Shown here: positions 24,573 through 39,236 of the stretch, one piece after another
Layout of the letters: the number at the start of each line of letters is the position of its first letter
Numbering within the stretch: the stretch's first letter is position 1
Assembly: GCA_030390025.1 (NCBI GenBank)
Contig: CM059432.1
Coordinates: forward strand, 47,432,001 to 47,496,000
Length of the DNA: 64,000 nt
Direction: 5' to 3'
Source: Squalus acanthias
Taxonomy: Eukaryota
Position numbers and translations under genes: made by a program
The notes under the pieces: model-generated
Told to the model about the DNA's origin: nothing
The model's database searches: none
Seen by the model: the letters and a program-made list of their open reading frames with translations, nothing else

Positions 24573-24660
24573 TAAGGTGACAGGTAAAGAGCTGAACAGG
24601 ATTGCGAATGGTCTACACTAATGTCACTACCGCTTCACGCAGCACTTCCTGTGGCAAGAA
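24573..24660 (-). promoter_or_regulatory. CPNE3: Candidate non-coding first exon / TSS region of CPNE3
   Basis: Minus-strand GTAAGT donor starting at 24572, ETS-like ACTTCCTG near 24644, adjacent CpG/GC-rich tract. No transcript evidence. Confidence 0.3.
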
Positions 24661-24675
24661 CCATCAGCGCAGTGC

Positions 24676-24862
24676 CGGCCCCATGGTGGAGGCGGCCCCA
24701 GGGTGGAGGCACTCCCAGGATGGAGACGGCACCCCGCTGCAGGCGCACAGAGCAGCGGCTCCAGGGTGGAGGCGGCCCCAGGGTGGAGGCACTCCTGGGT
24801 GGAGGCAGCTCCCCGCTGCAGGCGCACAGAGTAGCGGCTCCAGGGGGGAGGCGGTTCCTGGC
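24676..24862. repeat. GC-rich degenerate tandem repeat (CCAGGGTGGAGGC-based ~17-18 bp units with an ~80 bp higher-order duplication)
   Basis: Repeated ccagggtggaggc(ggcc/actc). Block ccccgctgcaggcgcacagag.agcggctccaggg occurs twice. Confidence 0.8.
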
Positions 24863-26085
24863 TCAGGACTCACTTTACCCAGACCCGCAGAAACACTCCT
24901 TCTTCAACAACCTATTTCATAAATTTAGTTTAGGAATTGAGATTAAAAAGATTCTGACAGGATGTAAAACTTGAGTTTTCCAAGATGAATTATTCAAACC
25001 GAGTTGGGTTTTTCCCTATAAATTTCCCTTCCCTCTTCTCACATTTCCAGGGGCGGTGTCTCTTCCAATTAGACATTGTTCGCCTGCGAGCCCAACCACT
25101 TACATTTTCAAACCCAAATCAACGGTTATCTAATTGAAACTTGACTCGACCAGGTTGTGGTTGAAGAGAAATAGCAAGCCGTTAAACTCAAGAAAACGGA
25201 CGGCGTTTATGGTCAAGAATGTCACTGACTGAAAGAATATGTAAACGTAACACTGTTAATTTTTATGATGCGGAGATGCCGGTGTTGGACTGGGGTGGAC
25301 AAAAATGAGAAGTCGCACAATAACCTGGTGTTTAGAGTGACATGCACCAAAATAGACTGCATTTCAAACAGAAATGAGCGAATATCGTTTATGACACTAG
25401 CTTTTTAAAATAAAATAAATCTCAGACAGCCGGTGGACTCTGCCGGACGCCCATTGCACAATTGACAAATTCTCTATTTGATTAGATCCGGTTGGAGCAT
25501 TTTTAGTCGTGTCCTCTTAAAATAGACACTTGCGGAACGGACTCGTTGTCCCGTTACCCCGGGGAACCCAGTACCACCGTTACCGGTTCAATTAAAAAAG
25601 GCAAAAGCAGGAGATAATGGACTTTGATTCTAGGGCCTCAGTCAAACCAGAGGAAGCCTGGAATCGACTAAGTAATGGGAGGGTCCCAGCATGTCACTGC
25701 CCATCTGAACAGCTGCCGATTGCCACAGACTGCCCGAGCCTTGCCTACCTATGCCCAATGGTCAGCATCCCACCGTCTCTGCTTGGCCGAAGCCTCCTGC
25801 CAAAGAACGATAACCACGTTGACCAGTAATGTTGCCCAAATGCGTAGACTGTGTATAATTTATAGTAAGTGTGTCTGCAAGTGCCATGCAATCTATAATC
25901 TACTCCTGGAACCCAAGTAAAGATATAAACTTTCCACAATTTAATACAATTTATTTTGTATTTGAAAATTGTGATTGTTGTTTGCATTGCTGCTGGTGCT
26001 ACTTTTGCGGCAGTGTATATAGTTTCAATAGTGATTCCATATTTTATCTTGACCTTAACTGTGAGGTGAAGTTAATTCAACAGTG

Positions 26086-28103: not shown

Positions 28104-29456
28104 TGTAGGTGGTTTGCCTTGGTGGTTCGAATCACCTCTCCTACTTAGTTCTAGACGACAGGAATTACGGTGACAGGATTGGAACACAGACAAGTTTTTC
28201 GGACTCAACCGTACGGTGTTTAATAAGGTTAACACACACACCCACCTCCAGTACGTAAATTACCTGGTGGCGTAAAACAAACAGAACAACAATACAACTT
28301 GGCCCGTCGAACAGGCCCCTGTCTCATATTAAGACGCCTAAAATCACACTGTGTTGCTATACAGAGTATAACATGGACTTGTCCCACAAACCCTGGAACA
28401 TACACTATATAATACACACAGAACCTCCCCACTAAGCCCCTCTGGATTGGTTGGGACACACAACACCCCCTCACACAGTACCGGTGGTCTTAAGGATGCG
28501 TGGGCTTGGACAATGCTCACCCCAATTGTCCGTTTTCTTGCTTGCTGCTTCCCTGTGTAAAGCGTGTCTCCTGGTTCAGTATCGCCGATGCAGTATCCAA
28601 GTCCCAGTTTCATTCCTACAGTCGAAGAGCAAGGCGAGGCTCTTGTCGCTCGTGGTGGTTTCTTCTCTCCGTCTCGGATGGAGTGCTCGGTTCTTGGTTC
28701 AGAGATGAGGGCACGCGAAGGCGAGAGCAAGCGAGAGAGAGCGAGAATGGCCAAAGCTGCCTTCTCTTATACCCTAAAAGTTTCATTGATGTCTTTTTAA
28801 TCACCCTTCTTTGTCTGGTTTCCCGCCTTTCGGGGCTATCCCATCTAGGTGCTAGTGTTAATGGCAGATGATAGGCCGCACTTCTTACCCGATCCCGGGT
28901 TAAGTGGTTTCCCATTAGTTTCCAATGGCCCTCCTTTGTCCGGTTCCTGCCTTTCGGGGCTATCCCATCTAGGTGCTAGTGTTAATGGCAGATGATAGGC
29001 CGCACTTCTTACCCGATCCCGGGTTAAGTGGTTTCCCATTAGTTTCCAATGGCCCTCCTTTGTCCGGTTCCTGCCTTTCGGGGCTATCTCATCTAGGTAA
29101 TGGTGTTCATGGCAGATGATAGGCCGCACTTCTTACCCGATCCCGGGTTAAGTGGTTTCCCATTAGTTTCCAATGGCCCTCCTTTGTCCGGTTCCTGCCT
29201 TTCGGGGCTATCTCATCTAGGTAATGGTGTTAATGGCAGATGATGGGCCGCACTTCTTACCCATTGTTTCCCAGAGAACTCTGTCTGCTCAGACATTCTC
29301 CCGTAATCAGTTTGTAGGCCTGGCTGGAATCTCCCGTCCATGACGAACACCTGGGCCCCTCCCATCTTCTCCAAACAGGCTGCTGGTCAATCAGCAGTAA
29401 CAATCATACAAAATGTCCGATACAAAAAATCCTTGGAGCCTGCGCTGATACTTACA
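28104..29456 (-). repeat. 3' LTR (1353 bp), includes a 124-bp tandem array in U3
   Basis: Direct repeat of 37669-39236. Termini TGTAAG...CCTACA on the minus strand. Preceded by the PPT. Confidence 0.95.
28825..29262. repeat. U3 tandem repeat, 3 full 124-bp units plus a ~66-bp partial unit
   Basis: gcctttcggggctat starts at 28825, 28949, 29073 and 29197. Confidence 0.95.
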
Positions 29457-29643: not shown

Positions 29644-31959
29644 TTAATCAGGGCCTGCCAACGACTGGAGTACCTTGCTTCGCTTTTTACAGGAGAGCCG
29701 TAACAAGTACAATACCACCAAACTCTGTATAATTACAAGAGCGTGTGAACATATCCGGATCCATGGAGGGATCTCGACATTTAACCCAATATCCCACCAG
29801 GGCGGGGAAATCATCCCTTTAATTTCCTCCCCTGTGTCCTGGTTTCGCTGTTCGAGCATGTAAAAATGTTTTTGTGGCAGCTCAACGGCTTTTATTAATT
29901 TTGTGAGGTGTTCGGGCAGAGGCTGTATCTCGTACCCGAACTGTGTAATGTACTGCTGCAGATTCTGTACCGTGTTGTTTACCACGAGGTGTACTGTGGA
30001 TTGCTCTGAAATGGGAAGGATGCGCTCTTGCGCCACCTGAACTGTGTGGGGTTTGAAGCAGGAAGTCGAATCGGTGACCGGGCACCAAGTGTCGTTGTGT
30101 ACCCGATACTGGTCCATGCTTGTCGTGACGCAGTACGTCCCATCGCCCGCGTATGCTACCTGAGGTGGAACGTGGCTCTGGGCCATCACCTCCATGGTGC
30201 AATTAATGGGCTCTGCACTTTCCGATTCAAACCCACACACTGGTCGATCGAACGCGTTCAGGTGCTGGGGACACAATATCACGTGTGCGCCCTGCTTTGG
30301 CACCCCTTGAGGTCAGTGCCGGTCATGGCATGCTCCCACTTTATAACAAATGGTGGGGCCCCATGATACCGCACATGCATCCCGTCCCTCAAGATGCCAA
30401 TGTTATCGACCCGGTATACCGGCACTGGCTGCGGTGACCCGCCCATTACCGGCATCCGCAGTACAATCCCCATAACGGTGTGGTTGGACCGTCCGCAATC
30501 AACTGGGACTGGGTAGGCGTCGGAAGCTAATCGGAGTTGACACGGGCTCATCGAATTATGATACGGGCTGAGCGCTGTGAGGTGCTGGTTGCTAACCCAC
30601 GACGGGACGCGACCTTGTTGTAAGTCCTCCAGATTACTGCGTCCCTCGTTTAGCAACCACGCAACGTACAACACGCACGCATCACTTCTGGCTGCCTGTG
30701 CCGAGGCATTCCTGTCCTCCCGTATCAAATCGTTGATGGTCTTGGCCTGTGTCTCCAGCTCAGCGATGACCTCTTTTAAATGAATGGTCATCGCCTGGTC
30801 TTCTTTTAGCTCCGAACCTTCCACCTCGTTCCCTTCCCCAGTATCTTTCGCAGCTGGTCCTTTAAACTATTAATCTGCACCTGCAGCTGGATATCATCCA
30901 TACTATTGACGAGGGACGTGCCCGTGCTAAAAGCCGTGGCCATGTCATTAACCGTCCCTCGCCTCTGTCTACCCGGATTACCTCTATCGTACGCATCCAT
31001 GCCCTACAGTTTCTCCCGACTCACATCCCCGTAGCTGAGCTCGAAAAATTGGCGGAACATTTCTTTAATAAGGGATTCATAAAACTGCTCCGTCTCCTTC
31101 GGACACCACTCGGGCAGCTGCACCCGGGTTAAATTTAAATGACCGACGCGGCCGCGTAATGTACATCCTGGAATAAAACCTTCCCGGTCGGGACTAGAAC
31201 TAACCCATTCCCTGGGCCTGGTGTGGTGGTGGGACACCTAACTTCTGTCTCCTGTACCGGTGGGGCTGTGGGCAGGGGCTTCCTATCGTGCACTACCAGT
31301 TCCGTGGAATTTATTGTGTTGGGAGGGTCTGGAACTACGCAAGCCTCCAAACTCCGATCCCATCCCATACCGGCCCCGGAATCCTGCCATTGCCATATGA
31401 AAGCAATCGACACACCCGCTGGGCAGATCCGTTCTGACCCCCATACACACACACATAAATCCCCTGTTCCTCCTTCCACCACTTGTTCCAGCACACTTCC
31501 ACTCCCCCCTTCATCCCCGTGATCTGTCGGTACGTGTCGTTCCCCAGTCTTTCCCAGTCCGCTGACCTGTTCCCCTTGTCCTGACTCAACTTCCTAAGCC
31601 ACCACCACCGTCCCAGGGGAATGTGTCCCTTGCATCTTAAGCACACGCGCTTGCCCTCGGTCACCCTAACCCGTGTGGCTGTGATCTTCAGTTGGGGACA
31701 TGGTAGGGAAGCCTCACCGTACGTGAACCCGGCGTGGCTGGTGTATTTCGTCGAATTGGACCCCAGCCACCCTGGCCATCTTCCCTCGTGGAAGTAGGCT
31801 GCCATCCCGTCTGTGTGTCCCCCCCCCCGCCCCCCTAGTTACAGTGGGTGCCCCCACCCCAGTACAGCCGTAGAGGAGGGATGACTCGGTATCCCCTCTC
31901 CTGCTGTGCCCCGTTCCGGCCAACATCAAGATCACACTCAGTCTCAGGGCTGTCTCCAT
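29644..31959 (-). pseudogene. env: Env-like class I fusion glycoprotein (F-type), disrupted by about 5 frameshifts and one stop
   Basis: Signal peptide METALRLSVILMLAG, RQRR furin site at 30959-30970, heptad region, Cys-rich ectodomain, TM (WIRICSHALVIIQSLVVLYLL) and short basic tail, stitched across ORF fragments. Confidence 0.85.
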
Positions 31960-31974
31960 TCCGTCCTCGGCTTC

Positions 31975-32102: not shown

Positions 32103-35100
32103 CTAAGGCTCTTCTCGCCGGGGCCTTTTGCGGCTCACGGTCGGCGTGTAAGGAGGCGTCCACTGCGTCCTCGGCCGTGGGACCCTACTGCTCCTCCTTA
32201 CTGTCCCGACCACCGGGTCATCGTCGTCCCAAATCATGGGAGGAAGACCCGCGTCCACCATGCTCATTATTGGGCCTTGGTGTCGTTTTACTTTTGTTGT
32301 TCTCTCCCCTGGGTTAAACCGCTTGCACTGGTTAATATGGAGATACTTTGTGCGTTTTGGGAGTTTAACCATGTACACCATGGGGCTTGCCTTGTCCACT
32401 ATGCTATACGGCCCCATGTATAGTGGCTCAAATGCCCCTACCCAGGCATAGTTCCGTACCATTACCTGGTCTCCCACCTTCCACTCGTGGGTTTTCTGGG
32501 GCTCGAGCAGCAACTGATTTTTCCGGTGCTGGTTCCCCATGTTACTGGCTGCCTGCCAGTGAATCTGTTTTAATTTATCATACAGATTCTGTACAAACTT
32601 GTCCCGGTTCACTTCCCGGACTTGGGCTTCCATTAGGACCGGTGCCAAAACGTGAGTGGGAGTGCGCATGACCCTCCCGGTCATGAGCTCATGCGGGGAA
32701 TACCCTGTGCTTCTGGAGAGGCTGGCCCGGACAGCCATTAAAGCTAACGGCAGGACCTCATCCCACTTTTTCGGGGACGACCCTGTCTCTTTCCTTAGCC
32801 TTTCTTTAATCGTCCGGTTAAAGCGCTCCACAACCCCCAATGACTGTGGGTTATGAGCCACATGGCACTTCCCCTCAATCCCTAAAAACTTCAAGGTGGC
32901 CTGCATTACTTGCCCCGTGAAATGACTCTCTTGGTCGGACTCCACAACCTGTGGCAGTCCCCACCGGGAGAACATTTCCTTTACCAGAATCCTTGCCGTC
33001 GCCAAAGCCGTGGCTGCTCGGCAAGGGAAGGCTTCCACCCACTTGGAGAACACGTTCACCAGGACTAGGCAGTATTTGTTACCTGCCTGTGTGGTGGGTA
33101 GTGGTCCGATGTAATCGACCTGGAGGGACTGCCATGGTCCCTCTACCCTCCTTGTGTGTCCTATGGGGACTTTCCTACGCTGAGGATCGGGGTTGTTTGC
33201 TGCGCACACCAGGCAGTCCGTGCAAAAGTCGTGGACATCCTCCCTGACTTGCGGCCACCACTCTGCCTGTTCTACCCTCTGCCAGGTAGTTTCCGGCCCT
33301 GGGTGTCCCGCTCCTGGGCCCCCGTGGGCCAACTGGAGGAATTCCCTCTGGTACCGTTTGGGAACTATCCACCGATCCCCTTTAAATAGCATCCCCTCTT
33401 TAACGGTAATGTCCGCTGCTCCGAACGGACCCTCTACCTGTTCACCCTTTTCCTTCTTCCCCAGGATAGCCTTAAGGACGGGATCCTGGGCTTGGACTTG
33501 CTTTAAGTCCGGGGCCAAAGTTACCCCCGGTGTTCCTCCCTTGTCCCGGATTTCTGCTACCGGGCCTACTTCATAGGGATCCCAGAACTCTCCTTCCCTG
33601 GCCCCCTGCTTGGCCAACTCGTCGGCCCTTTGGTTACCTTCCCCTCTGGGCTCTGTCTTAGAGTGGGCCTTGACCTTATGTATATAGTGATCTCCCCGGG
33701 TGCCCGTGACCTCCAAAATCCTCCCTAGCAGCAGTGCTGTTGCTAGAGGCTTCCCATCCGCGGATTTAGAACCGCACCGAGCCCAGATGGCCAGGTACTC
33801 GGTGCACGAATTACTTGTAAACATGGAATCCGAGTAGATGTTGTAGGGGGTGGGGAACTCATTGGGGTTGGTCACCACATACACCACCACCGCCAGTTCG
33901 GCGTGCTGAGCGCTCAGGGTGCTGGGGAGTTTAAGGGCTTTAGCTATCTTAGCCATGGGGTCATAAATCCCGCACCCGGTGAAGCGCTCCCCCTTTGCTA
34001 CCGAACTGGACCCGTCCACGTAAATGTCCCGGCCCATCAGGTGTAACCCGGCCCGGAACCCGACATCCACGTCCCATACCCCTTCTACCGTACCCGTGTG
34101 GGCCGTACCTGGGTAAATCAAATTCGCTGCCAACTTGGGCTCGGTCAATCCCTGCACTCTCAGATTCATCTGCGAGAGCAATAAAGTCCAGCGAGCAATG
34201 CGAGCACTGCTCACTGTCCCGTCCTTTATTCTCCCGTCCAACAACATCTGAGTGGGGGTATGGTGGGTGAGTAGAACTATCAGGGATGATTCCGTAAAGA
34301 GCTGTGAGAGCTTTACGGCCCACTGCGTGGCCAGGAGATACATCTCACAGTTGTAATATCCCCGTTCTACCTCGGTGAGAACCCTTGAGGAGTAGACCGC
34401 GCCAAGCTATCCCCGCTGGCTGCTACCTCTAAAAAGAATTCCTCCCCACCGTTGATGGCCCCCAGTGCGGGAGCTGTCTGCAAATCCTCCTTGAGGCGTG
34501 TGAACGCTTCCTGGCAGTTCTGGTCCCACTCCCACCCGACTCCCTTGCAGAGGAGCCGAAGCAGAGGGGCTGCCGTGGCTGCGTAACCCTCAATAAAATC
34601 CCTGCAGTACCCTGTGAGTCCCAGGAAGGATCTTACCCCTGTTACGTCCTTGGGGACTGGTAACTCCTGTACTGCCTTTCTTTTCGCCTCATCTATGGCC
34701 CTTTCCCCTGCCCTTACCGTCAGCCCGAGGAATTTGACTTCCTCGCGGCCGATCTGGGCTTTCTTCGGGTTTACTTTAAACCCGGCCTCCCTCAGCAGCT
34801 CGAGCAGCTCGGCCAGCAGTGGCCCATACTCCTCCCCCTCGGCGGAGAACAAAAGCAAGTTGTCCACATACTGTACTAGCTGCTGAGGTCGGCTAAAACC
34901 CTTTAAGGCGTCCTCCATACACTGGTGGAATATGGAAGGGCTGTTATGAAAACCCTGGGGAAGGCATGTCCAGGTGTACTGTTGCCCTTTAAAAGTAAAG
35001 GCAAACTTGTATTGGTCTTCCCTTTTTAGAGGAATCGACCAAAACCCATTGGAGATATCCAGCACCGTAAAAGTGGTTGCGGTCGCTGGAATGCTCCCTA

Positions 35101-35949
35101 TCAGATTGGCAACAGCCGCGACTGTGGGCGCGCAGGCTGGGATGTTTTTATTGAGCACCCGATAGTCAACGGTGGCTCTCCACGACTGGTCGGGTTTCCT
35201 AACCGGCCAGAGTGGTGAGTTCACATGGGTGGCTATCGGCCTCAACACCTCCTGTTCTACCAGGGATCCCAGTGCCGTTTCCAAGTCGGCTTCTGCCTCT
35301 CTGGGGAAATTATACTGCTTTTGTGGCCGTGACATGGGGTCCCCATGTACTCGGACTTCTACCCCTGTCACCCGGCCACAGTCGTGTTTGTGCGTGGCGA
35401 ACAATGCGAGATTGTCTCTCACGTTCGCCTGATACTTGGCTGGGGTATTACTGACCAATTGCTCCAGGTCGTAACTCCCCTTAGGCTTCATCATGCACAC
35501 GCTACCCCTTCCTTCCCCATCCTTAGGGATTACTAGAACTTCTCCCTCCTTATCGGAACTCACCGCTCCCCAAAGGCAGTGATTCCTCAAATCCACTATT
35601 ATATGATGGGCTAACATAAAGTCGGCCCCTAGGACTCCTGACCCTGGCTGTTCCCACTTTATTAGGACGCATTTCCACTTGGTGTGGAGGGATCCTAAAT
35701 CTATGGCCAAAGGTTTGCACATTGCCCCCGCCTGCTCGTTCCCTGTGAACCCCACGAGACTGAATGGGATCCTGCTAGACCAGGGTGAGTTGGTCGGGTC
35801 CCTTGAATGGATCACCGTGCTCGAGGCCCCGGTGTCCACCAAGTCACCAAGTACTTCCCGTGTACCGTCTCCACCCCCATCTTCACACAAGGTCTGCCCC
35901 ACTCATCGTACGTGAGCGGACACAGGTACTCAGGCTGGGCGCGCTCTAG
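32103..35949 (-). pseudogene. pol: Pol (protease, RT, tether, RNase H, integrase), disrupted
   Basis: LVDTGA protease; LPQGFHNSP and YVDN (YVDD with D>N) RT; IYVDGSS/AQHAEL/IYSDS/KVKAH/GNQRAD RNase H; HHCC, D-D-E and GPY integrase. Frameshifts at 35837-35852 (8-bp duplication) and near 34400 (deletion). Confidence 0.92.
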
Positions 35950-37623
35950 TCAGGGCATTGGGCATATGGGAGCGGTCGGGATCACACTGCTCGCGGCAGC
36001 GTCTACCCTCCCTTTCTCCTGCACAAAAACCGTCCGAAGGGCAGCCACCAGAACGTCAAACGGTTCCCTGGTCACCCCCTTCGCCTCGACAGTCTGTGCC
36101 TTTTGCACCAGAGGATCCCCTCGGCCTTGCCCCTTTTTCTGGGTCGGGCACTCTCGCCTCCAGTGTCCCGTCTTCCCACACCCGAAACATGTCCTTGCCT
36201 TTTCTGCACTAACCCCTTCCTGACGCCATTCCTCCCTGCTACCCTCACTGGCCTTTCTCTCATGTACCTTGCCTTTATTGGGTTTGACCTCCTCCTCTGA
36301 ACCGGTTTTAAAGACCAGGTTCATCTTACGGAGCACGTCGGCCTCCGTATTTGCGAGGTCCTCAGAGCCAAACCAGGCTTCTGCTTTTGCCCTTATTCGT
36401 GGCAAACTGTTTGCCACGAGGGTCCTGAGCCAGTGATTCCTGGGGCCCCCTTGCAGCTGTAACCTGTCCAGTATCCCACCCGTGGCCTTTCCGTATACCG
36501 GCCATAGCCTGTCTGCTGCCTGTGGTGCTTCGCCAGCCAGCTGCAGCGTTCTCTCCACTCGGGAGAACGGACTACCCTGGGTATGTCCCATGGCTCTCAG
36601 GATTTCCTCCTTTAAACCTGCCGTGGTTCCCTGCCCCAGCTCGGTGGCTGCGGACAGGGCCTGGTACAATTTTCCATCCAGGGAAAATAGTAACAACCTG
36701 TGAGTTTCGCCCTCACTACACCTATTGATCCCTCCAATATGCTCCACTTCCATGAAGTGAACGGAGGGGTCCCCTTCTTTTCTTAATTTGGGCATGCTTG
36801 CTATCATAGCCTGCAGTTGTGGGGTGGTAAACGGGACCACGTAATCGCTCTGCAGCGGGCCCTGAGCACCGTCTTGTGCGGGCGGACCATACTTTTGCTG
36901 CCGCAGAGGACACATCAGTCCCGGTGGTGCTTCTGGCGTCGGTCGGGATTCCCTATCCCAGACCCAATCCTCAGACCCCTGTCTTTCCTCTTCCCAGTCC
37001 ACCTGAGCTTCCCCCGAGGTTGTTAAGCAAACCATCCCTCTGGCTTTGGACAGGGCTTGGGTCAGACTTTTTATCCTTTCCTCGCAGGGTCCGTGGTTTA
37101 AATCCTCGTACCCCCTGTTCCTGGCTACCCTGTAGGCTGCCTTTATGTCTCTAAGCTGCCCCTCTAGCCCGTCAACTTTACCCGTTGAGCGGGCGTTCTC
37201 TGCCCGTACAGCCTGCTCATTGAGCTTGGCCTCGGTGACCTGGCACTGCAGGTACTCCCCGGTGTTACGGGAGGTTTCCTCCTGTGCGCGTTTCTCCTGT
37301 CTTTCCTCGCGCAGCTCCTCCATTAATCTATTACCCACTATCCCCCTTGCGTCTGACTTTTCTTCTGATTCCCTGAGCTCGGCCTGCAGCTTTCCAACCA
37401 GCTCCCTGAGCAGTTGGACCTGTTTCTGCAGGCACAGGAGCCAAATCGCTTTTTCCTTAGACTTTTTATGCTCCTTGCTCCCTGTCCATCCCGCAGCCCT
37501 ATCCTGAGGACTGTCAGAACGCAACATCTCCAGCACCCACTGCTGAGACACATTAACTTTACCAAACACATAGGAGGAAATTCTGTCCCCCATTGCAGAT
37601 CTCTTGCCCTCTAAACTTTCCAT
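35950..37623 (-). CDS. gag: Gag polyprotein, intact ~557 aa (coiled-coil N-terminal region, capsid-like region, CCHC knuckle, PTAP)
   Basis: Uninterrupted ORF from first ATG at 37623. CFGCGKTGHWRREC = CX2CX4HX4C. C-terminal PTAP. Confidence 0.9.
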   Translation of the reverse strand: MESLEGKRSAMGDRISSYVFGKVNVSQQWVLEMLRSDSPQDRAAGWTGSKEHKKSKEKAIWLLCLQKQVQLLRELVGKLQAELRESEEKSDARGIVGNRLMEELREERQEKRAQEETSRNTGEYLQCQVTEAKLNEQAVRAENARSTGKVDGLEGQLRDIKAAYRVARNRGYEDLNHGPCEERIKSLTQALSKARGMVCLTTSGEAQVDWEEERQGSEDWVWDRESRPTPEAPPGLMCPLRQQKYGPPAQDGAQGPLQSDYVVPFTTPQLQAMIASMPKLRKEGDPSVHFMEVEHIGGINRCSEGETHRLLLFSLDGKLYQALSAATELGQGTTAGLKEEILRAMGHTQGSPFSRVERTLQLAGEAPQAADRLWPVYGKATGGILDRLQLQGGPRNHWLRTLVANSLPRIRAKAEAWFGSEDLANTEADVLRKMNLVFKTGSEEEVKPNKGKVHERKASEGSREEWRQEGVSAEKARTCFGCGKTGHWRRECPTQKKGQGRGDPLVQKAQTVEAKGVTREPFDVLVAALRTVFVQEKGRVDAAASSVIPTAPICPMP

Positions 37624-37668: not shown

Positions 37669-39236
37669 TGTAGGTGGTTTGCCTTGGTGGTTCGAATCAC
37701 CTCTCCTGCTTAGTTCTAGACGACAGGAATTACGGTGAACAGGATTGGAACACAGACAAGCTTTTCGGACTCAACCGTACGATGTTTAATAAGGTTAACA
37801 CACACACCCGCCTCCAGTACGTAAAATGCCTGGTGGCGTAAAACAAACAGTACAACAATACAACTTGGCCTGTCGAACAGGCCCCTGTCTCATGTTAAGA
37901 TGCCTAAAATCACACTGTGTTGCTATACAGAGTATAACATGGACTTGTCCCACAAACCCTGGAACATACACTATATAATACACACAGAACCTCCCCACTA
38001 AGCCCCTCTGGATTGGTTGGGACATAGAAACATAGAAGATAGGAGCAGGAGTAGGCCATTCGGCCCCTCGAGCCTGCTCTGCCATTCGATGAGATCATGG
38101 CTGATCATCCAAACTCAGTACCCTGTACCTGCCTTCTCCCCATATCCCTTGATACCTTTAGCTTTAAGAAATATATCTAACTCATTTTTGAATATATTTA
38201 ATGACTTGGCCTCAACTACCTTCTGTGGTAGAGAATTCCACAGGTTCACCACTCTCTGGGTGAAGAAATTCTTCCTCATTTCTGTCCTAAATGGCTTACC
38301 CCTTATCCTTAGATTATGACCCCTGGTTCTGGACTCTCCGACCATCGGGAACATTCTTCCTGCATCTAGTTTGTCCAGACCTGTCAGAATTTTATATGTT
38401 TCGATGAGATCCCCTCTCATTCTTCTATACTCCAGCGAGTATAAGCCCAATCGACCCAATCTCTCCTCATATGTCATTCCTGCCATCCCAGGTATCAGCC
38501 TTGTGAATCTTCGCTGAACTCCTTCCATGGCAAGAACATCCTTCCTCAGATAAGGCGACCAAAACTGCATACAGTACTCAAGGTGTGGTCTCACCAAGGC
38601 CCTGTACAACACCCCCTCACACAGTACCGGTGATCTTAAGGATGCGTGGGCTTGGACAATGCTCACCCCGATTGTCCGTTTTCTTGCTCGCTGCTCCCCT
38701 GTGTAGAACGTGTCTCCTGGGTCCGTATCGCCGATGCAGTATCCAAGTCCCAGTTTCGAGGTTCGTTCCTCCAGTCGAAGAGCAAGGCGAGGCTCTTGTC
38801 GCTCGTGGTGGTTTCTTCTCTCCGCCTCGGACGGAGTGCTCGGTTCTTTGTTCAGAGATGAGGGCACGCGAAGGCGAGAGCAAGCGAGAGAGAGCGAGAA
38901 TGGCCAAAGCTGCCTTCTCTTATACCCTAAAAGTTTATTGATGTCTTTTTAATCACCCTTCTTTGTCTGGTTTCCCGCCTTTCGGGGCTATCCCATCTAG
39001 GTAATGGTGTTCATGGCAGATGATGGGCCGCACTTCTTACCCATTGTTTCCCAGAGAACTCTGTCTGCTCAGACATTCTCCCATAATCAGTTTGTCGGCC
39101 TGGCTGGAATCTCCTGTCCATCACGAACACCTGGGCCCCTCCCATCTTCTCCAAACAGGCTGCTGGTCAATCAGCAGTAACAATCATACAAAATGTCCGA
39201 TACAAAAAATCCTTGGGGCCTGCGCTGATACTTACA
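37669..39236 (-). repeat. 5' LTR, interrupted by a CR1 insertion and lacking the 124-bp U3 array
   Basis: Aligns to the 3' LTR. Followed on the minus strand by the PBS. Confidence 0.95.
38025..38605 (-). mobile_element. 5'-truncated CR1 LINE inserted in the 5' LTR
   Basis: LYRALVRPHLEYC...NLWNSLP ORF2 C-terminus plus 3' tail. Absent from the 3' LTR. Confidence 0.95.

Follow-up and report, generated by a model that had tools for sequence, protein, structure and literature searches.

The 64,000-nucleotide stretch of Squalus acanthias DNA analysed here (the window) carries on its minus strand a decayed endogenous retrovirus (ERV), a provirus of approximately 11 kb with long terminal repeats (LTRs) and the genes gag, pol and env (Table 1). 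The subject of this study is the N-terminal part of the env product. In this part, a segment with the sequence pattern of an immunoglobulin (Ig) domain precedes a body which, according to structure prediction, is a class I fusogen of the F type, similar to the fusion protein of paramyxoviruses and pneumoviruses. In our estimation there is a slightly better than even chance that the segment belongs to an N-terminal head on an F-type Env, is Ig-like and provides a built-in attachment or triggering module.

Table 1. Positions of the provirus parts and of the env features in the window (ORF, open reading frame; TM, transmembrane segment; RT, reverse transcriptase)
Feature	Position	Strand	Basis
5′ LTR	37739..39236	-	four direct-repeat blocks pairing with 28173-29456, 95-97% identity
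gag	35950..37623	-	557-aa ORF; CCHC zinc knuckle, Pfam zf-CCHC E 2e-5
pol	32103..35722	-	two ORFs: 34367-35722 (RT), 32103-34406 (RNase H and integrase)
env	29644..31959	-	Pfam, ORFs, tblastn to long Env ORFs of other copies
env start and predicted signal peptide (METALRLSVILMLAGTGHS)	31903..31959	-	ORF 31714-31959; aligns with N-terminus of long Env ORFs
G-rich run, change from signal-peptide frame to Ig-segment frame	31819..31835	-	frames compared with in-frame copies of the same family
conserved N-segment (…YFHEGRWPGWLGSNSTKYS…FTYGEASLP), ahead of the Ig-like segment	31701..31818	-	alignment A3
Ig-like segment, 85 aa (CPQLKIT…GIYVCV)	31446..31700	-	B-strand Cys, C-strand Trp, Y-x-C; Pfam Ig_3 on 31446-31697
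TG run, return to signal-peptide frame	31445..31455	-	ORF frames; nearby positions differ in other copies
post-Ig Cys-bounded beta hairpin (WGSERICPAG…SLEACVVP…NSTELVVHDR)	31282..31444	-	frame of ORF 31135-31593; conserved in relatives
Pro/Thr-rich linker (KPLPTAPPVQETEVRCPTTTPGPG)	31210..31281	-	ends in CP…GP, where the F2-equivalent starts
F2-equivalent (GLVLVPTGKVLF… up to the furin site)	30971..31209	-	ORFs 31135-31593, 31004-31237, 30806-31003; tblastn
furin-type motif RQRR, then G and a hydrophobic fusion-peptide-like stretch	30959..30970	-	ORF 30806-31003; corresponds to RQRR|G of P0003
F1-equivalent (fusion peptide, HRA, domains I-II, HRB, TM, short tail)	29644..30958	-	ORFs 30279-30866, 29644-30312; tblastn; fold matches
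3′ LTR	28173..29456	-	direct-repeat pairing; holds 124-bp tandem repeat (28820-29262)

Reading frames of env in the window and in other copies

The env copy of the window is itself defective. Its six ORF pieces are spread over three frames, and it contains at least five frame changes and one in-frame stop. The ORF encoding the signal peptide (31714-31974) and the ORF encoding the linker and F2 (31135-31593) share one frame, and the ORF encoding the Ig-like segment (31335-31838) is in another. The latter is out of frame with both of its neighbours, and a continuous reading from the signal peptide through the Ig-like segment into the linker is therefore stitched across frames. The two frame changes that flank the segment, in the G-rich run and in the TG run, together restore the original frame. 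The peptide GLVLVPTGKVLF, encoded at about 31171-31209, is in the same frame as the Pro/Thr-rich linker. Further on, the F2-equivalent contains one more frame change and the in-frame stop, and the F1-equivalent, with its TM around 29689-29754, contains two more frame changes. Directly after the predicted signal peptide (approximately 31890-31900) the tripeptide R-G-D is found in most shark subfamilies, in the contexts RRGDVED, RRGDTES, ERGDTEV and HRGDTEE; the skate relative and one other do not have it. The tripeptide could be an integrin-binding motif or could have arisen by chance.

Other copies of the family were collected by a six-frame search of the 3.7 Gb assembly with the 167-aa ORF of the window as the query. 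The search gave 5870 first-look candidates, 150 of which were scored, and all 150 matched with E <= 9.2e-65 and 62-100% identity. By hand count, the open frame is at least 300 aa long in 63 of the 150 scored matches, at least 600 aa in 13 and more than 780 aa in two. The ERV family is abundant in this genome. Thirty-two ERV loci were fetched, 12 picked for their long frames and 20 for their likeness to the out-of-frame tail of the window's ORF; 11 of the 32 fall outside the motif-search pattern. Among the 21 loci that match it, 11 encode the N-segment, the Ig-like segment, the Cys hairpin, the Pro/Thr-rich linker and the CP..GP start of F2 in one frame, and the other ten change frame soon after the Y-x-C motif. 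The long ORFs of other copies, of about 790 aa, run from the signal peptide through the furin site and F1 in a single frame. P0003, a natural ORF of 788 aa from the first Met, was used unaltered as the modelling query. Its signal peptide comprises residues 1-16, the N-segment 17-82 and the Ig-like segment 84-168; the hairpin extends to approximately residue 205 and the Pro/Thr-rich linker to 237. These are followed by F2, the furin site RQRR|G at 327-331 and F1 with the TM from approximately residue 729.

The initial annotation had read the Ig-like segment as following the signal peptide within Env, and the linker and an F2-like segment as following in turn. All of these parts are present in the window, but the Ig-like segment is in a different frame there, and the continuous reading holds only for the copies with long ORFs. 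The annotation had staked its reading on a comparison with intact copies, and in these the signal peptide, the Ig-like segment, the linker and F2 indeed lie in one ORF. A conserved alternative short ORF ending after the Ig-like segment was considered and rejected, as the positions of the frame changes vary between copies. Copies with the short ORF are enriched in our set because the search query included the out-of-frame tail of the window, which constitutes a selection bias. At G000:C6:46846944-47041567, five near-identical copies of the 5′ part of env occur within approximately 200 kb, all of them sharing a 211-aa open frame. Two of these, L083 and L084, have pol upstream and are identical over 1.3 kb apart from the length of the G-run, in which they differ by four G (around position 472-489). 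Either the tract is prone to slippage or its assembly is error-prone. The interpretation of the five copies as a co-opted truncated Env was rejected; they appear to represent an ERV that lies within a recent duplication, tandem or segmental.

Selection on the 85-codon Ig-like segment was estimated by the Nei-Gojobori method. Between subfamilies (pairs with 65-81% aa identity and a dS of 0.58 to >1.5), the ratio of nonsynonymous to synonymous substitutions (dN/dS) is 0.11-0.15; four subfamily pairs were too saturated for an estimate. This low ratio argues that the Ig-like segment was a coding domain under selection. When the window is compared with a 95% identical copy, the ratio is 0.53, calculated from six changes. 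The segment was under purifying selection during the diversification of the lineage and decayed after insertion.

Predicted structure of the Env body and of the Ig-like segment

The full Env was modelled with AlphaFold2 from a 43-row alignment that included relatives at 18-35% identity. The mean predicted local distance difference test score (pLDDT) of the model is 62.5, with values of 80-97 over most of residues 240-310 and 430-650. A Foldseek search of the PDB with the full model returned 229 matches at E <= 0.001. The best one is F of parainfluenza virus 5 (PIV5; 2b9b_B, 2.2e-10), and all 43 PDB matches listed among ranks 1-50 of the 229 are paramyxovirus or pneumovirus F proteins. In BFVD, 51 predicted viral structures were matched at E <= 0.001. 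Among them are arlivirus and lispivirus glycoproteins, baculovirus F and torovirus S proteins, as well as the Envs of walleye epidermal hyperplasia virus 1 (2.7e-12), walleye dermal sarcoma virus (5.0e-12) and feline foamy virus (1.9e-4). The model contains domains III, I and II with the nested topology of F. The predicted furin site directly precedes the hydrophobic fusion peptide, which is followed by the heptad repeats HRA and HRB and the TM; helices are found at 332-371, 391-444 and 678-712, and the TM helix starts at 729. The RxxR or KR motifs of distant relatives fall in the same alignment column as RQRR. At the sequence level, the Pfam family PF00523 (Fusion_gly) matches neither P0003 at E <= 10 nor 13 relatives at E <= 1, and no PDB chain was matched in the whole-Env sequence search. 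The initial annotation had called the body an F-type fusogen, and the predicted fold agrees with this. Residues 244-316 of the model (pLDDT 80-95) align with the F chain from its residues ~24-34 onward. The extra module thus lies on the N-terminal side of the residues matched to the start of mature paramyxovirus F2.

The minus-strand ORF 31335-31838 (167 aa) reads ...PCPQLKITATRVRVTEGKRVCLRCKGHIPLGRWWWLRKL...EEQGIYVCV..., with VTEGKRVCLRC followed by RWWWLRK. The hallmarks of the immunoglobulin superfamily (IgSF) are all found in it: a B-strand Cys, a C-strand Trp ~12-14 residues later and the motif D/E-x-G-x-Y-x-C ~55-75 residues after the Cys. Counted from the first Cys, the Trp is at +12 to +14 (there are three Trp) and the Cys of Y-x-C at +64, both conserved across subfamilies. 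The pattern that the initial annotation had placed at 31446-31697 on the minus strand is thus present, within limits that are those of a sub-threshold Ig_3 match; its spacings of +11 and +61 are corrected to +12 and +64. This Ig_3 match of Pfam covers residues 48-131 of the ORF with an E value of 0.0071 and 17.3 bits, over profile positions 2-75 of 78. Ig_3 also matches 20 of 27 relatives at E <= 1 (best E 0.0025), and no other Pfam family matches more than one member.

Profile comparison points in the same direction. A profile of 21 Env segments was aligned by hhalign with one built from 28 host Ig_3 exons of this genome, which gave a score of 21.6 (P 6.9e-4) over 71 columns with the Cys, the Trp and the D/E-x-G-x-Y-x-C motif in canonical register. 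In the control, 200 column shuffles scored 10.8 +/- 2.4 with a maximum of 19.1, none of the 200 reached 21.6, and the reversed profile scored 10.6. In the full AlphaFold2 model, the region forms strands at residues 92-96, 101-107, 115-121, 132-134, 141-146, 149-154, 161-171 and 179-189. These seven or eight strands match the order A-B-C-C′-D-E-F-G, and the Cys, the Trp and Y-x-C lie on strands B, C and F. The nearest neighbours of two family members by ESM features are Ig-family clusters with scores of 0.83-0.90, which count as a lead only by the calibration of the tool. In the flanking parts of the head, the strands of the post-Ig hairpin (179-189 and 193-204) have a pLDDT of <50. The N-segment has a pLDDT of 21-31, and its columns R41, G44, N49, S50 and S54 are nearly invariant in the 27-row alignment A3.

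Relatives of Env and the surrounding provirus

When the whole Env served as the query of an exhaustive HMMER search, 49 proteins matched at E <= 0.001. Twenty of these were checked by name, and the 16 that have names are all from sharks, a skate or frogs (Chiloscyllium, Mustelus, Heterodontus, Scyliorhinus, Pristiophorus, Rhinoraja, Pelodytes, Mantella and Xenopus). No teleost protein and no host IgSF gene is among these named matches. The HMMER matches extending over the Ig-like segment are Env fragments that are nearly identical. A word-index search returned only two proteins, both ERV-derived, and a single-protein query of the IMG/VR viral contigs found no relative. The Ig-like segment also occurs in predicted proteins of other species, including the skate relative; the post-Ig Cys-bounded hairpin is not present in the frog relatives. 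In the UniRef entry P0002 from Pristiophorus japonicus, annotated as “zinc finger protein ZFP2-like isoform X1”, approximately 270 aa of C2H2 zinc fingers are joined to an Env part, with residues 272-492 corresponding to the Env signal peptide, the N-segment and the Ig-like segment. Either the gene model of this entry is an artefact or the transcript is chimeric.

Full-length distant relatives (19-33% identity) align with the query only from residue ~216-236, and each has a head of its own of 140-185 residues. The CP-x-GP-x-GL motif is kept even in these relatives. P0013, P0014, P0019, P0026, P0030 and P0043 have a common F body and mutually unalignable heads. The head of P0030 is clearly Ig-like in the hhalign comparison with host Ig_3 (88.4%, P 2.8e-6), although it lacks the Cys pair, and the distant shark relative P0013 bears the UniRef name “Ig-like domain-containing protein”. 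Two frog heads show, by eye, the pattern E-G-x-W-V-x-I-x-C ... W ... G-x-x-x-C, with no significant score. As the distant heads are not detectably homologous and two of them give no Ig signal, it does not follow that the ancestral head was Ig-like. The mutual non-homology of the heads implies either very fast divergence or exchange, and the sequences suggest head swapping or extreme divergence among the Env relatives.

The pol gene of the provirus matches the Pfam families RVT_1 (1.1e-33), RT_RNaseH (4.3e-7), RNase_H (1.7e-18), Integrase_H2C2 (4.3e-15) and rve (3.2e-13), with a degraded RT_RNaseH (tether) and a second RNase_H within one pol ORF. The solved RTs nearest to that of the element are the protease-RT (PR-RT) of foamy virus (7kse, 2.8e-53), gamma-type RTs (8wus and 4hkq, ~1e-52; 1.4e-52) and Ty3 RT (7e-39). 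Since foamy and gamma-type RTs match about equally well, the element is retrovirus-like, but the comparison with solved RTs does not place it in a genus. The spacing of the LTR blocks differs by several hundred bases between the 5′ and the 3′ LTR, which indicates indels between the two. The 124-bp unit in the 3′ LTR (28820-29262) occurs in three overlapping copies of 195 nt that are 94-100% identical. At 24608-24974, on the plus strand, two overlapping ORFs encode a repeated peptide rich in Gly, Pro, Trp and Arg (…APGWRR.PQGGGTPGW…); this sequence, which lies upstream of the provirus, probably represents a low-complexity repeat or a minisatellite.

Comparison with known systems and interpretation of the N-terminal head

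The fold of the Env body resembles F of PIV5, human parainfluenza virus 3, Nipah virus, Langya virus, human metapneumovirus and respiratory syncytial virus. These F proteins have no module ahead of F2 and act beside a separate attachment protein, whereas the Env described here is retroviral and has ~225 extra N-terminal residues. F is regarded as a minimal scaffold to which receptor-binding modules can be added N-terminally or by insertion (PMC11468914). In foamy virus Env, as seen by cryo-electron microscopy, an F-like core carries an inserted receptor-binding domain with a novel fold of its own, so that a retroviral Env with a built-in receptor-binding module on an F scaffold has already been described (PMC11468914). 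The likeness extends to the BFVD match with feline foamy virus Env and to foamy PR-RT as the best solved RT match. In foamy virus Env, however, the receptor-binding domain lies between the HRC helix and the furin site and is preceded by a leader peptide, whereas the module of the present Env lies ahead of F2 (before residue 244) and follows a short conventional hydrophobic predicted signal peptide. No foamy-type insertion was found in the model: only ~10 residues separate helix 311-316 (helices 284-316) from the furin motif at 327.

The N-terminal domains of coronavirus spikes have galectin-like or other folds and are much larger, and the spike belongs to an RNA virus, unlike this retroviral Env. 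The spike is cited as the precedent for receptor-binding modules at the N-terminus of a class Ib scaffold (PMC11468914). The gamma-type Env provides another comparison. The receptor-binding core of murine leukaemia virus is Ig-like. In the gamma-type Env, an N-terminal receptor-binding domain is followed by a proline-rich hinge, and the order of a beta-rich receptor-binding domain, a proline-rich hinge and a part contacting the fusion subunit is shared with the Env studied here (PMC9967133). The fusion machinery is unrelated, a class Ia transmembrane subunit there and an F-type fusogen here. The Pfam family of gamma-type Env gave no match at E <= 10, and Ig_3 is the sole family matched by P0003.

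Lokiretroviruses are known from lampreys, bony fishes, amphibians and reptiles and have an F-like Env that matches PF00523 with an E value of 2.2e-7 (PMC7947760). They share with the present element the status of ERVs of cold-blooded vertebrates, an Env similar to F of Mononegavirales and the dual RNase H with tether; their Env also has a signal peptide, a furin site, a fusion peptide, a coiled coil and a TM (PMC7947760). Their frog hosts overlap with those of the frog relatives of this Env. The sequence match to PF00523 reported for lokiretrovirus Env was not found here, and the degraded tether with a second RNase H, which was found, is common to all retroviruses. In the supplement of the lokiretrovirus study, three genomes of Orectolobiformes (Chondrichthyes) are listed as screened with none positive, and the available text of the study does not contain the words “immunoglobulin”, “N-terminal” or “receptor” (PMC7947760). 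The epsilonretroviruses walleye dermal sarcoma virus and walleye epidermal hyperplasia virus 1 are fish retroviruses whose predicted Env structures match our model. Their Envs are far longer (1159 and 1317 aa, compared with about 790 aa here) and showed no sequence similarity in the searches run. In the accessible literature, epsilonretrovirus Env is called “distinct” from the gamma type (PMC9967133) or is reported as a case of failed modelling of the surface subunit (SU) (Hötzel preprint), and its F-type nature may not have been spelled out in print. No description of an Ig-like Env head was found in the accessible parts of the literature on lokiretroviruses, errantivirus Env, ERV structures, Troyka and SU modelling by Hötzel. 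The initial annotation had regarded the architecture as unfamiliar. This is too broad, given the published N-terminal modules on F-like scaffolds (PMC11468914) and the comparable gamma-type layout (PMC9967133), but the particular arrangement was not found described in these sources.

Several results speak against an Ig-like, receptor-binding head. All Ig signals of the segment lie below formal thresholds. The gathering cut-off of Ig_3 is 30 bits, compared with 17.3 bits for the window ORF and 16.3 bits for P0003. The hhalign probability is 26.8% against host Ig_3 and 4.4% against 20 host V-set exons, far below the 98.5% of the positive control, host Ig_3 against V-set. The Ig-like region reaches a pLDDT of only 45-69 in the full model, and a domain-only AlphaFold model has a mean of 39.1. 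With the latter, Foldseek gave no match at E <= 0.001; the best ones were 6kjk (0.086), CTLA-4 (0.32) and V domains of antibodies and T-cell receptors (~0.5). Sequence searches of the PDB with the whole Env and with alignment A2 returned chance coiled-coil matches only, the A2 profile being no clean Ig test as it kept 709 positions including F columns. The heads of P0014 and P0026 are Cys-rich and give no Ig signal, and in hhalign comparisons of the heads of different Env lineages, homology was detected only between the frog heads and between P0014 and P0026. A dN/dS well below 1 indicates constraint and is silent on which function was constrained, and the receptor-binding role is deduced only from the position of the module and the absence of another attachment gene. 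For the Ig domain of the initial annotation, the Pfam score (17.3 bits), the hhalign probability (27%) and the pLDDT (39-69) are unfavourable, and the register of the alignment and the shuffle control are favourable. On balance, an Ig-like fold of the segment is somewhat more likely than not.

A receptor-binding head that is weakly but consistently Ig-like is the most likely explanation for the N-terminal module. The results above demonstrate the order of the domains and show that these share one frame in other copies, that the segment was under purifying selection and that the body is of the F type in its predicted fold. The head would comprise the mature residues ~17-243, that is, the conserved N-segment, the Ig-like beta-rich domain, the Cys-bounded hairpin and the Pro/Thr hinge. 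Together with F2, the furin site, the fusion peptide, HRA, domains I-II, HRB and the TM anchor it would form a single envelope glycoprotein, and after furin cleavage it would stay tethered to F1 via F2. The F scaffold has no receptor-binding function and no separate attachment protein is encoded, so we infer that the head serves for attachment or triggering. The built-in attachment module suggested by the initial annotation fits a position N-terminal to the start of F2.

The strongest alternative, although an unlikely one, is a virus-specific beta-rich receptor-binding domain outside the IgSF, in which Cys...Trp...Y-x-C arose by convergence or chance. In that case only the attachment head on an F scaffold would remain of the interpretation. 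The sub-threshold Ig signals and the lack of a confident Ig model are in line with this, as are the Cys-rich heads of P0014 and P0026 and the novel fold of the foamy virus receptor-binding domain on a homologous scaffold (PMC11468914). However, four independent weak tests favour the same superfamily and no other, and the hhalign alignment extends over the full length in canonical register and beats 200 of 200 shuffles.

Retroviruses transduce host sequences, and the best Pfam and hhalign matches are to Ig_3, an I-set-like type that many host adhesion receptors contain. Still, it is improbable that a host IgSF exon was captured and fused to the F-type Env with its donor still recognizable in elasmobranch genomes. 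Real Ig sets resemble one another far more closely than the segment resembles the Ig_3 and V-set exons of this genome. The captured host domain proposed initially found no counterpart: no host IgSF protein was recognized among the 49 HMMER matches (16 of 20 names) or by the word-index search with its two ERV-derived proteins. The segment differs by 30-35% of its aa among subfamilies and is present in the skate relative, and any capture would therefore be old. The host donor appears untraceable, and if the segment is of host IgSF origin, its capture is too old to trace. A module that is mainly immune-modulating or a decoy, for example a mimic of a host ligand, is very improbable. Large DNA viruses carry Ig-like immunomodulators, and one ESM neighbour cluster is a poxvirus soluble interferon receptor (0.83, a lead only). 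Against this, the segment is a covalent part of the F2 end of the fusogen, where related scaffolds carry receptor-binding modules, and there is no conserved secreted short form, the short ORFs resulting from frame changes at varying positions. Finally, a chance pattern in a stretch of a dead provirus that is out of frame, which the broken frames on both sides of the window segment might suggest, is refuted by the in-frame copies, the strong constraint between subfamilies and the presence of the segment in predicted proteins of other species.

The Env fits into the modular framework outlined above, and its arrangement of a compact, probably Ig-like head and a Pro/Thr hinge ahead of F2 in a retrovirus is probably new. 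A more far-reaching proposal, to which we assign a low probability, is that the element belongs to a still undescribed lineage of retroviruses in cartilaginous fishes and frogs, one that the lokiretrovirus shark screen missed. Its F-type Env would be self-sufficient by means of exchangeable N-terminal heads, which in this family and at least one other would be genuine IgSF domains of ultimately host origin. If true, this lineage would be a natural example of receptor-binding modules plugged onto the N-terminus of a minimal class Ib scaffold. The practical value is limited for now, since the Ig fold and the binding role are putative and the copy in the window is dead. The distant relatives carry different heads on one scaffold, and module exchange could therefore be studied directly. 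With its N-terminal head of ~225 residues, the Env family would provide a compact retroviral example beside coronavirus spike and foamy virus Env, and it extends the host range of retroviruses with an F-type Env to cartilaginous fishes.

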